From the IMG/VR virus record IMGVR_UViG_2617270949_000004: a DNA stretch of 5,125 bases. The stretch is one strand, 5' to 3'. The notes beneath the pieces were generated by a model. The model was not told the DNA's origin, ran no database searches, and saw only the letters and a program-made list of their open reading frames with translations. The stretch's first letter is position 1. The number at the start of each line of letters is the position of its first letter. Made by a program: the position numbers and the translations under genes. Shown here piece by piece: positions 3,147 through 5,125 of this stretch. This stretch comes from a virus (lineage: Duplodnaviria > Heunggongvirae > Uroviricota > Caudoviricetes).

Positions 3147-3701
3147 TTATTTTAAGGAAAGCAACTGCTCTACGGTCATATTTTTAATTGCGCTCCGGTT
3201 TACAAGAGTCCAGCCTTGTTGCTCCAGATAAAACAGGAAGGTATCCAGGGTGCAGACCATTGCGCCGTCAGGAACGGTTTCAGTGAATTTGATATTGCCG
3301 TGTTCGTCGAGACGGATAACCAGGGTGCGTCCGTCCCCGTGAATCATTTTGTCGGGAGACGGGGCGTTATTCTGGCGCAGTTCAGCTTCCATGCGGTCGA
3401 ACTCAGCAATGTATGCCTCTTTAAATGCAGCGGCTTTTTTGCCAGTGAAGCCCATCACCAGGAAAACGAAGCCGTTTTTGGTGATTTGGTACATTGGGAG
3501 TTTGCGCCCGGTTGAGTCGGTGTATTCGCTCGACACAAAATTGTGCTCAGTGAATTTTGCTGAACAGTCCAGATTGCGAATTTTATCCAACACTCGTTCG
3601 TGGCGTTTGCCAAAGAACTCGGCGATCGCAACAGACGTAGTGACAGCGCGACCATTTTCGATGGTTACGTCAGGGTGAGAAAGGGTAAGGATAGTAGCCA
3701 T
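3147..3701 (-). CDS. Phage regulatory protein of the Rha family (antirepressor-like), about 184 aa
   Basis: Minus-strand ORF with start at ATG 3701-3699, preceded by GGAGG 8 nt upstream; stop at 3149-3147. N-terminus MATILTLSHPDVTIENGRAVTTSVAIAEFFGKRHERVLDKIRNLDCSAKFTEHNFVSSEYTDSTGRKLPMYQITKNGFVFLVMGFTGKKAAAFKEAYIAEFDRME fits the Rha-domain pattern (FGKRHxxVLxxIRNL ... Y.D..GR....Y.IT..GF..LVMGFTG.KA..FK..YI..F). The in-frame upstream extension to 3998 crosses a terminator hairpin and is considered less likely. Confidence 0.7.
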   Translation of the reverse strand: MATILTLSHPDVTIENGRAVTTSVAIAEFFGKRHERVLDKIRNLDCSAKFTEHNFVSSEYTDSTGRKLPMYQITKNGFVFLVMGFTGKKAAAFKEAYIAEFDRMEAELRQNNAPSPDKMIHGDGRTLVIRLDEHGNIKFTETVPDGAMVCTLDTFLFYLEQQGWTLVNRSAIKNMTVEQLLSLK

Positions 3702-3865
3702 GATGGCAGCCTCCGCGATGAATTTGATTAACTCACCACCGAGGTTTTCCACGACCATAAGGGTGGTGAGACGTACAGGGGTGGAAATACCGGTCATCAC
3801 GGAACCCGGCCAGCCTTGCGGCTGCCCTGCACGCCCCACCATAATGCGAATGTGGCTGTGCTTAA

Positions 3866-3898
3866 CGCATAAAAAAACCGCCTGAGCGCGGTTATGCG
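3866..3898 (-). terminator. Putative rho-independent terminator in minus-strand orientation, upstream of the Rha gene
   Basis: Minus-strand RNA would read CGCAUAA-CCGC-GCUCAG-GCGG-UUUUUUU-AUGCG: a GC stem (AACCGC/GCGGUU, loop GCUCAG) followed by a run of 6-7 U. Outer arms CGCATAA/TTATGCG add a larger imperfect palindrome. Confidence 0.5.
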
Positions 3899-4063
3899 CC
3901 GTGAATGATTTCGGGTTTCCACGCCCGGCACCCGTTTTATGAGGTGCAGGTGCACTATAATTCCACCCGTTCTGGTTTTCAATAGCTACATTCAACATTT
4001 TCTCTACCTTTCATCACCGAAGTGAACTTTGTTGATGCGGTGCCTGGTGCCTCCAGGTGATGT

Positions 4064-4084
4064 TAACCAGTTAACAATTAACGC
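4064..4084. repeat. Three closely spaced (G/A)TTAAC repeats (GTTAAC-CA-GTTAAC-AA-TTAAC); candidate protein-binding/operator-like site
   Basis: Direct reading: gttaac at 4064-4069 and 4072-4077 (each self-complementary), then attaac at 4079-4084; preceded by a CCTGG-N5-CCAGG inverted repeat at 4046-4060. No function can be assigned from sequence alone. Confidence 0.25.
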
Positions 4085-4554
4085 CGGATACAGAGAATCC
4101 ACCCATAACACTGTTTTTGGTTTTAACTGTTCCGCGTGCGCTGAGCCGCATTCACCGCATCACAAAATTCACTTTAAAAAGGGCGGCAGAGCAGTCACGG
4201 AGTAAAACTGATACCGCCAAAAGTCACCAGAAAATTGATAACAGAGGGCGTTGCAGCGGAGTTGTTACTTAAGCGTATGGTCAACCTGACAACCCGGTGT
4301 CCTCAACGGGGGAAGGAATACCCCCGCCATACTTACCGCCGCGCCATTTCGCGGAGTGCCACAACCGGAAGCGCACGGTCGAACTAAATTTAACGACACC
4401 GTACAGAGAGACCAATTTCGCCGTGCGCTTTCGCGTTATGCCCTGACTTTTCAGGGACATATCCTTTCAGTAAACTGTCAGTGCCGGATGTTCACCCGTG
4501 TCCGGCGCACGCACTCCACCTGACCCGTGGAGAACTCCTTAATTACCAACCCTC

Positions 4555-4560
4555 AGGAGG
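4555..4560 (+). promoter_or_regulatory. Shine-Dalgarno sequence AGGAGG for the downstream plus-strand ORF
   Basis: AGGAGG ends 5 nt before the ATG at 4566. Confidence 0.55.
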
Positions 4561-4565
4561 GTGAA

Positions 4566-4772
4566 ATGGATAAAAAGCAAATTGAGGCCCTGCAATCTAT
4601 TATTGAAAAACAAGATGAAGCTATCAGGATTCTTTCATATCGCACTGATATGATACTAAATATGCTTTCTGCATTAACGGCTGCGCTTGGTGGTACAAAA
4701 ACAAACGTATACCGCGAAGTTGTTATTCAACAGATAGATAAATTTGAAAAAACCATACCAGGTATTAGGTGA
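4566..4772 (+). CDS. Hypothetical prophage protein (68 aa as it stands), probably 3'-truncated by the IS1 insertion; sits where sieB lies in Rac
   Basis: ATG at 4566 with a strong RBS. Product MDKKQIEALQSIIEKQDEAIRILSYRTDMILNMLSALTAALGGTKTNVYREVVIQQIDKFEKTIPGIR. The last sense codon AGG spans the host/IS1 junction and the TGA stop (4770-4772) lies inside the IS1 left inverted repeat GGTGATG. The upstream GTG at 4527 used by the track is less likely. Confidence 0.55.
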   Translation: MDKKQIEALQSIIEKQDEAIRILSYRTDMILNMLSALTAALGGTKTNVYREVVIQQIDKFEKTIPGIR

Positions 4773-4790
4773 TGCTGCCAACTTACTGAT
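4768..4790 (+). repeat. IS1 left terminal inverted repeat (IRL)
   Basis: GGTGATGCTGCCAACTTACTGAT at the element boundary. The flanking host sequence is ...ACCATACCAGGTATTA; the target-site duplication cannot be confirmed without the right end. Confidence 0.9.
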
Positions 4791-4822
4791 TTAGTGTATG
4801 ATGGTGTTTTTGAGGTGCTCCA

Positions 4823-5098
4823 GTGGCTTCTGTTTCTATCAGCTGTCCCTCCTGTTCAGCTACTGACGGGGTGGTGCGTAACGGCAAAAGCACTGCCGGA
4901 CATCAGCGCTATCTCTGCTCTCACTGCCGTAAAACATGGCAACTGCAGTTCACTTACACCGCTTCTCAACCCGGTACGCACCAGAAAATCATTGATATGG
5001 CCATGAATGGCGTTGGATGCCGGGCAACCGCCCGCATTATGGGCGTTGGCCTCAACACGATTTTCCGCCATTTAAAAAACTCAGGCCGCAGTCGGTAA
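4823..5098 (+). CDS. insA: IS1 InsA (transposition regulator, N-terminal part of the InsAB' transposase), 91 aa
   Basis: GTG start at 4823, stop TAA at 5096-5098. Product [91 protein letters not shown], with a zinc-finger CxxC...CxxC and a helix-turn-helix region. Confidence 0.95.
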
Positions 5099-5125
5099 CC
5101 TCGCGCATACAGCCGGGCAGTGACG
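5017..5125 (+). CDS. insB: IS1 InsB (transposase catalytic part), 5' portion only; continues beyond the window
   Basis: ATG at 5017 in the -1 frame relative to insA, at IS1 position 250. Translation [36 protein letters not shown]... is open to the window end. Confidence 0.85.
5072..5080 (+). promoter_or_regulatory. IS1 programmed -1 ribosomal frameshift site (TTAAAAAAC, A6C motif) producing the InsAB' transposase
   Basis: TTAAAAAAC lies in the insA frame just before its stop, in the insA/insB overlap, as in IS1. Confidence 0.8.

Follow-up and report, generated by a model that had tools for sequence, protein, structure and literature searches.

The window that we analyzed is the whole 5,125-nucleotide (nt) stretch of IMG/VR virus record IMGVR_UViG_2617270949_000004 (Caudoviricetes), and our subject is its positions 3999-4565, about 570 bp that an initial annotation had described as free of any open reading frame (ORF) of 60 codons or more. 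The ORF listing bears this out, the longest frames within 3999-4565 having 59 amino acids (4460..4281, minus strand) and 58 amino acids (4029..4205, plus strand). In an Rfam scan of the window, three minus-strand RNA genes scored above threshold: the small RNA (sRNA) DicF, isrK, and the C4 antisense RNA. Matches to STnc100 (4169..4028) and to the C4 a1b1 targets fell below threshold. The DicF match lies well inside the ORF-free stretch (4232..4181), covers the full model (1-52 of 52), and scores 75.8 bits, where gathering requires 48 (E = 5e-16).

The sequence around DicF is that of a known operon. A Rac-type prophage of E. coli 600029 matches the stretch at 99.9% identity, and of 5,426 complete E. 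coli genomes, 4,427 carry homologous sequence. The ydfC-dicF-dicB spacer of the Qin prophage of E. coli K-12 and phages Tritos and 640R1 are colinear with window positions 4023-4551 without rearrangement, at 90-94% identity over the noncoding part, and the Tritos record carries a DicF annotation at the homologous position. The Rfam match, this colinearity, and the Tritos annotation together lead us to conclude, with roughly 90% confidence, that the stretch is the noncoding middle of a dicBF-type operon, the early-left (pL-type) operon of a lambdoid prophage of the Rac/Qin kind. Read on the minus strand, it would comprise the 3' untranslated region (UTR) of ydfC, the dicF gene, and the leader of dicB (Table 1). 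The initial annotation had listed a leader for the minus-strand operon and a regulatory RNA among its explanations and was right in spirit, the region consisting of minus-strand DicF, its precursor, and the dicB leader; it had missed the correct strand as well as the main structures, namely, the DicF terminator hairpin (4182-4218) and an inverted repeat (4366-4378/4421-4433). The stretch is already explained as the known DicF locus, and the part that may be new is limited to a folded segment upstream of DicF.

DicF consists of a single-stranded 5' seed (UUCUGGUGAC), the terminator hairpin GGCGG...CCGCC, and a UUUUU run. It differs from K-12 DicF at a single position (G12U), a minor natural variant that is the same in 6 other copies. 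DicF acts in the control of cell division, sugar metabolism, and virulence in enterohemorrhagic E. coli (EHEC). In the AU-rich linker ahead of it, the segment GUUAUCA (4242..4236) is able to pair with UGGUGAC of the seed (4229..4223), giving a 7-bp hairpin in minimum free energy (MFE) folds, and this pairing would mask the seed in the precursor.

In K-12, DicF is excised from a polycistronic dicBF transcript in which an internal promoter was not found (PMC10448788, PMC9438474, PMC6582626). The 5' end of a 190-nt species is made by RNase III, the 5' end of the 53-nt DicF is RNase E-dependent, and terminated and read-through transcripts are both made (PMC10448788). The 3' end arises by intrinsic termination or, in a 72-nt form, by RNase III cleavage (PMC9438474). 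The features of our copy that match this scheme are the helices and the AU-rich linker. The two 13-nt arms of the inverted repeat are 92% complementary and form a long hairpin with a stem of ~18 bp in the MFE fold; the arms are conserved, and the apex is swapped between lineages. Counting 190 nt from the DicF 3' end leads to ~4369, within the 3' arm of this hairpin, and counting 72 nt from the DicF 5' end leads to ~4161, where the closing helix of the dicB leader has its base, so both inferred RNase III sites are double-stranded. The long hairpin is the probable RNase III substrate that would give the 5' end of the 190-nt species.

The steps established in K-12, applied to this copy by homology, would then run as follows. 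A polycistronic transcript would enter from the right, and RNase III would cut it in the hairpin at ~4364-4436, leaving a 190-nt species composed of a 100-nt folded domain, the linker, and DicF. A second cut, by RNase E in the AU-rich linker at ~4233-4240, where the site is placed by homology, would yield the 53-nt DicF. Its 3' end would be formed by its own intrinsic terminator or, in read-through transcripts, alternatively by an RNase III cut near 4161, at the foot of the dicB leader, as the published 72-nt 3' end predicts. DicF and Hfq would pair with the ftsZ, xylR, pykA, and manX mRNAs, and cell division would be blocked.

Several points weigh against this reading. The window lacks ydfC and dicB, the genes that normally flank the locus; the colinear spacer is what places this copy in a dicBF-type operon. 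The putative RNase III and RNase E sites are carried over from K-12 by homology and from lengths estimated on gels (190 and 72 nt), and the STnc100 match in the dicB leader is under the Rfam threshold, which makes that element "STnc100-like" only. The predicted duplex of DicF with the ftsZ ribosome-binding site, which includes ACUCCG/CGGAGA, has an energy just marginally beyond that of shuffles (-37.1 versus -31.0 ± 4.1 kcal/mol; P = 0.08); the DicF-ftsZ pairing of K-12 is proven genetically (PMC5069750), and the 3' part of DicF, the part concerned, is identical here to that of K-12 DicF. Activity of the locus in the source strain is a prediction. Lastly, an IS1 element lies between the dicF locus and the expected racR-side promoter, 200 bp upstream of the locus, with an end, GGTGATGCTGCC, from 4768. 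IS1 insertions are polar. This one probably cuts the locus off from its promoter, and the copy may be silent or poorly expressed. The IS1 junction is absent from all 5,426 complete E. coli genomes searched.

Table 1. Features at and around the dicF locus of the window, from left to right
Feature	Position	Strand	Basis or detail
P1 immI-like RNA module	3702..3998	minus	Rfam, promoter scan, motif location
a2/b2 targets	3752..3710	minus	Second copy of the a and b motifs; b copy overlaps the Shine-Dalgarno sequence GGAGG
C4 antisense RNA	3846..3759	minus	Rfam, 81.9 bits
isrK/a1b1	3947..3871	minus	Rfam, 67.7 bits
Promoter-like site TTGAAA-17-TATAGT	3982..3954	minus	Promoter scan, 10/12 matches, 7 nt before the isrK 5' end
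Recombination junction, dicF-dicB homology to immI-like module	4020..4034		Alignment A1 from column 598
dicB leader (5' UTR), closed multihairpin domain, STnc100-related	4028..4169	minus	Sub-threshold Rfam match, homology
Hairpin CCTGG-N5-CCAGG	4043-4057
DicF sRNA gene	4181..4232 (53-nt form 4232..4180)	minus	Rfam RF00039, homology
AU-rich linker with predicted RNase E site for the DicF 5' end	4233..4256	minus	Homology to K-12
Structured 5' domain of the 190-nt DicF precursor	4257..4359	minus	Covariance model R1, alignment A3
Domain hairpin P1			CCGCG/CGCGG
Domain helix P2a			CGGU/ACCG; one compensatory and one wobble variant
Domain hairpin P3 (variable), CGGGGG-N8-CCCCCG	4307-4326		Pyrimidine-rich UAUUCCUU loop
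Domain hairpin P4			GGGUUGUCA/UGACAACCC (3' arm UGACAACyC); U-A to C-G changes
Long imperfect hairpin, variable apex	4364..4436 (arms 4433..4421 and 4378..4366)	minus	Inverted repeat, MFE fold
ydfC-type proximal 3' UTR, containing the next three hairpins	4437..4551	minus	Homology
Hairpin CCCTGA-CTTT-TCAGGG	4441-4456
Hairpin GCCGGA-N12-TCCGGC	4483-4506
Hairpin CTCCAC-N7-GTGGAG	4514-4532
Plus-strand gene, 92 amino acids when intact, phrog_18692, start at 4566; other mosaic junction	4552..4767	plus
IS1 element, left end GGTGATGCTGCC	4768-5125		InsA ORF 4823..5098, InsA Pfam domains

The folded segment ahead of the linker is conserved beyond DicF: phages P1, P7, and cdtI, as well as Stx2c phages, are 76-86% identical to window positions 4365..4242. 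We collected 145 copies of the domain in two pattern scans of IMG/VR, and alignment A3 holds 29 non-redundant ones. In A3, 94.1% of cells are paired, compared with 36-50% when the partners are slid, and double changes occur at six pairs against 2.4 in shuffles, a number reached in 1 of 500 shuffles, with few independent events per helix outside hairpin P3. The stem of P3 is variable (CUGGG/CCCAG, CAGGUG/CACCUG, CGAGG/CCUCG, and GGGGU/ACCCC all occur); its loop stays pyrimidine-rich (UCCUU or CUCC), and this anti-Shine-Dalgarno-like character is retained. The window copy has a single C-A mismatch in P4. Loop-loop pairing of GUAUGG with CCAUAC is possible, the pair having changed from U-A to C-G in the phage P1 lineage and to U-G in two others. 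The stability of the domain alone in single sequences is unremarkable (z = -0.2 to -1.5), so the case for its structure rests on covariation.

Model R1, a covariance model derived from A3, gives 116.9 bits for the window, 127 for K-12, 120 for cdtI, and 93 for phage P1, and it finds exactly one copy per dicF-type locus. It has no match in the HK022 loci (L016 and L017) or in a Salmonella locus with a DicF-like terminator. Rfam contains no family that matches the domain at E up to 10, and the literature open to searching, which left out some likely early dicF and P1 sources, gave us no account of its structure. A tRNA- or tmRNA-like fold was rejected (ARAGORN predicted none, and a mascRNA match was at chance level, E = 4.4), as were the Pas sRNAs, which occur in late-region contexts and are unrelated to this locus.

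What follows the domain is regular in one respect and variable in another. A hairpin with a U-run occurs 49-97 nt after it in all 81 distinct downstream contexts, and the single-stranded segment between domain and terminator is of at least seven types, including DicF, a cdtI/Stx2c type with CACAACA, and the ban leader of phage P1. In P1, the domain lies in the leader of the ban operon, ~36 nt past the Pban start, at a place that the P1 record marks as a "dicF-like region"; in phage cdtI, it lies within a ~600-nt pL leader. The P1 copy (L014, 2496-2595; 93 bits) is followed by a terminator of its own.

It may tentatively be proposed, at odds somewhat below even, that the domain is no passive piece of precursor but a conserved RNA module, autonomous and possibly pseudoknotted, that belongs to temperate enterobacterial phages. 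It might guide RNase E and keep the seed masked until the cut is made, it might serve as a second regulatory arm of the 190-nt species, or it might modulate termination. The role in biogenesis and seed masking is favored because RNase E removes the domain to yield the active 53-nt RNA and because the linker can pair with the seed. A function of its own would explain why the 190-nt DicF species accumulates and why the same leader stands before different sRNA cassettes in P1 and in lambdoid Stx phages.

The downstream contexts also bear on a different explanation, in which the 100-nt domain (4257-4359) is a cis-acting antiterminator RNA like put of phage HK022. It would ride with RNA polymerase and cause read-through of the DicF terminator into the downstream genes, and the stretch would be an antitermination leader and not a precursor alone. 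put acts through the zinc-binding domain of the RNA polymerase beta' subunit to suppress downstream terminators. Such an action would be consistent with the intrinsic terminator behind every distinct copy, with the operon continuing beyond it, as in P1, where the terminator is followed by 2.6 kb of operon; the position in the cdtI pL leader, the coexistence of terminated and read-through transcripts in K-12, and the lack of any detected N-like Pfam family in related operons point the same way. However, the domain has no sequence or covariance-model similarity to HK022 putL or putR. With putL located in the HK022 genome, the shared element is limited to the 9-mer GCGCGGCGG (E = 2.8), and this, with the failure of R1 to match the HK022 loci, led us to reject identity with put. 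The architecture is also unlike that of put, a multihelix fold as opposed to two long stem-loops, and a terminator after a variable single-stranded segment is an equally normal design for an Hfq-type sRNA gene. We found no link between the dicB operon and cis antitermination in the literature searched. Put-like suppression of termination would fit the ever-present terminator but finds no support in sequence or structure, and we consider it improbable. A lambda-type nut site was rejected as well: the nut-like region suggested initially has no boxA on the minus strand within 3999-4565, the count of boxA across the window is at chance, and no N-like Pfam family was detected.

Three further observations concern cassettes of this kind. 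In the cdtI/Stx2c type (L015, 2609-2690; ~20 IMG/VR loci), a single-stranded CCACCACAACAGCC precedes the terminator behind the same domain, and its CACAACA is the GcvB R1 target consensus used by the anti-sRNA AgvB. This cassette could be another GcvB sponge; its identity with AgvB itself was rejected, the Rfam AgvB model having no match at the cdtI locus and AgvB lying in the late region (PMC4104026). In Salmonella enterica (L008, 3630-3700), a DicF-like terminator hairpin (UUUGGCGGCAUCAGUUUUACUCC...) stands behind a different upstream sequence with neither DicF seed nor 5' domain, and from this it follows that the terminator module and the 5' domain recombine independently. Finally, contigs binned as metagenome-assembled genomes of Veillonella parvula (L010) and a Collinsella sp. 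(L012) carry E. coli-type dicF loci whose near-identical 5' domains score 126-127 bits; mis-binning of contigs from enterobacterial prophages is the most likely explanation. The scan of genome contigs with a strict DicF pattern returned 8 loci only, and the taxonomic breadth is poorly sampled.

On its right side, the locus aligns to K-12, Tritos, and 640R1 up to position 4551, ~20 nt from the ydfC stop. At 4551/4552 the dicF-locus homology ends and an unrelated plus-strand gene segment begins, which IS1 truncates after codon 67. The initial annotation had considered the hairpins at 4483-4532 a structured 5' UTR or regulatory RNA of this gene, and they do lie 30-80 nt upstream of its ribosome-binding site, on a plus strand that folds better than shuffles (z = -3.27). 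Yet K-12 Qin, Tritos, and 640R1 have these hairpins in conserved form, with ydfC as the adjoining gene, and Qin and Tritos lack the plus-strand gene; the mosaic junction assigns them to the dicF side; and the promoter scan found no plus-strand promoter-like site within the region upstream of 4566. The z-score itself is uninformative on strand because the helices fold on both strands. The proposal is left with very little probability. Among homologues, the stems of the hairpins at 4483-4506 and 4514-4532 are invariant, which makes them uninformative, and their loops vary. Most homologues retain just 4 bp of the stem at 4441-4456, and in one lineage this stem has changed in a compensatory way (CUCUGA/UCAGAG).

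All five hairpins seen by eye in the initial annotation are present, within 0-3 nt of where it had put them. The excess of structure in the stretch is real but modest: we counted 15 perfect hairpins whose stems have 5 bp or more, compared with 6.9 ± 3.8 in dinucleotide shuffles (P ~0.04), and the MFE of the 391-nt core gave z-scores against shuffles of -2.85 (minus strand) and -3.27 (plus strand).

Another view of the region is that it is a decayed coding gene or encodes a small protein. Its best candidate is the 59-codon minus-strand ORF (4460..4281), which was first reported as an arginine-rich frame of 41 amino acids, a translation that slipped frame after residue 27. This ORF matches phrog_8854 (function unknown) end to end (E = 4e-42), and the Prokaryotic Genome Annotation Pipeline (PGAP) lists its equivalent in E. 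coli 042 as a 64-amino-acid hypothetical protein; PGAP also labels 4111..4028 a DicB pseudogene. Against these points, the start codon is ATG in just 7 of 36 distinct homologous contexts (ATT in 22, ATA in 6, and ATC in 1), most of the contexts have a stop after 15 codons, and indels in a G/C run shift the C terminus between copies. The ORF has no Pfam family, it overlies RNA helices with a compensatory change, and its PHROG is built from predicted proteins and brings no evidence of translation. The pseudogene, for its part, is without any Pfam DicB domain. The region has eight ORFs of 35-59 codons, all without a Pfam match. Given the unconserved start, the early stops, and these Pfam results, we conclude from the sequence comparisons that the stretch holds no protein gene, and a decayed or small coding gene appears highly unlikely.

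The dicB leader occupies the left part of the stretch. It is closed by a helix of GAUGCGGUG (4161..4153) with CACCGCAUC (4042..4034) and contains the CCTGG/CCAGG hairpin and a cluster of RTTAAC copies. Its match to Rfam STnc100 (RF02076) covers model positions 22-154 of 206 and reaches 32.3 bits (E = 2.7e-5), short of the 47 required for gathering. CCUGG/CCAGG aligns through a compensatory change to the model hairpin CCGGG/CCCGG, and the RTTAAC copies are the arms of another hairpin of the STnc100 model. Three such repeats had been noticed initially and do occur, at 4062, 4070, and 4077, without forming a tandem array; the operator cluster that had been suggested finds no support, and we rejected a tandem-repeat or operator array. 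In phage P1, a sub-threshold STnc100-like match (L014, 3842-3961; 33.4 bits) lies just upstream of tciA, and with the domain in its ban leader, P1 shares both RNA modules of the dicF-dicB spacer without having DicF or dicB.

The segment that PGAP calls a DicB pseudogene (cell division inhibition protein DicB, incomplete) is a stop-free in-frame extension upstream of the dicB ATG. In the extended dicB ORF of K-12, the Pfam DicB domain (PF05358, 62 residues) covers residues 36-97, downstream of the junction at which our copy departs from K-12; the 35-codon ORF at 4111..4004 has no match to it, and no part of the domain occurs in the window. The labeled segment is dicB 5' UTR. The dicF-locus homology ends at ~4023-4034, ~30 nt before the K-12 dicB start codon, and phage matches begin at window position 4023. 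The idea of a degraded gene holds, then, to the extent that dicB was lost by recombination, and fails in that only its untranslated leader is left, with no part of the DicB domain. E. coli 042 (L005, 2046-3099) carries the same isrK-C4-Rha module at the same point of the dicB leader, with an intact dicB after Rha. From this arrangement, the module appears to have been inserted into the dicF-dicB spacer, with dicB subsequently lost in the lineage of the window.

That module forms the left flank of the stretch, whose border at 3999 had been set by a 283-codon ORF (3998..3147) that PGAP assigns to the Rha family and that matches phrog_995. Its first ~99 codons overlie the promoter-like site, isrK, and the C4 RNA gene, and its Rha Pfam domain begins at residue 120, so the ORF is probably over-extended by ~99 codons. 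A Rha/antirepressor ATG at 3701 is preceded by GGAGG at a distance of 8 nt, and the true Rha-type protein probably has 184 amino acids. With the border ORF overlying two Rfam-level RNA genes, the RNA-rich stretch probably extends from ~3702 to 4565. The Pfam family Phage_ASH (PF10554) matches residues 14-109 of the 283-codon ORF, that is, the translated RNA locus, and this family may be modeling conserved RNA genes.

What these results offer is a corrected annotation: the 570 bp that look empty are densely packed with known RNA elements of the minus strand, and the neighboring automatic annotations, "DicB pseudogene" and a 283-amino-acid Rha protein, are probably wrong in detail. It is useful to know which prophages hold an intact DicF and whether its linkage with dicB and a promoter persists. 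Beyond this, the interest lies in the undescribed, conserved, and modular 100-nt domain and in the probable annotation errors alongside it.

Compared with the K-12 Qin dicBF operon, the locus has the same order and sequence, from the ydfC-proximal 3' UTR through the putative RNase III hairpin, the 190-nt precursor domain, and DicF with its terminator to the dicB leader. It differs from Qin by the one base in DicF, by the replacement of ydfC at 4551/4552 with the unrelated plus-strand gene, by the replacement of dicB from ~4023 with the isrK-C4-Rha module, and by the insertion of IS1 200 bp upstream; in addition, the near-identical genome has a Rac-type (racR) immunity region in place of dicA/dicC. 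The module has its closest relatives in immI of phages P1 and P7 (c4 antisense RNA, a1b1/a2b2 targets) and in IsrK of Salmonella Gifsy-1; it holds C4, isrK/a1b1, and a2/b2 targets overlapping the ribosome-binding site of a Rha/Ant-type gene; here, it lies outside the span that was first annotated and is joined straight to the dicB leader. The dicB leader, in turn, has the same hairpins and closing helix as the STnc100/PasD prophage sRNAs (RF02076; bioRxiv 10.64898/2026.05.13.724894), but its score is below gathering, and the element is a dicB leader here and lies upstream of tciA in P1, in neither setting as a stand-alone sRNA.

Among bacterial sRNAs, the nearest parallels to DicF are the 3' UTR-derived, RNase E-processed, Hfq-dependent sRNAs CpxQ, SroC, and SdhX (PMC9438474), which are likewise cut from a longer mRNA, end at an intrinsic terminator, and are released by RNase E at an AU-rich site. 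DicF differs from them in that an RNase III step comes first, in that a conserved folded domain of ~100 nt stands ahead of the sRNA, and in that this upstream domain recurs with other seed and terminator modules. HK022 put (two stem-loops, ~70 nt) resembles the domain as a cis RNA in an early phage operon, upstream of terminators and with no N-type protein detected; it differs in sequence, in covariance-model match, and in predicted fold.

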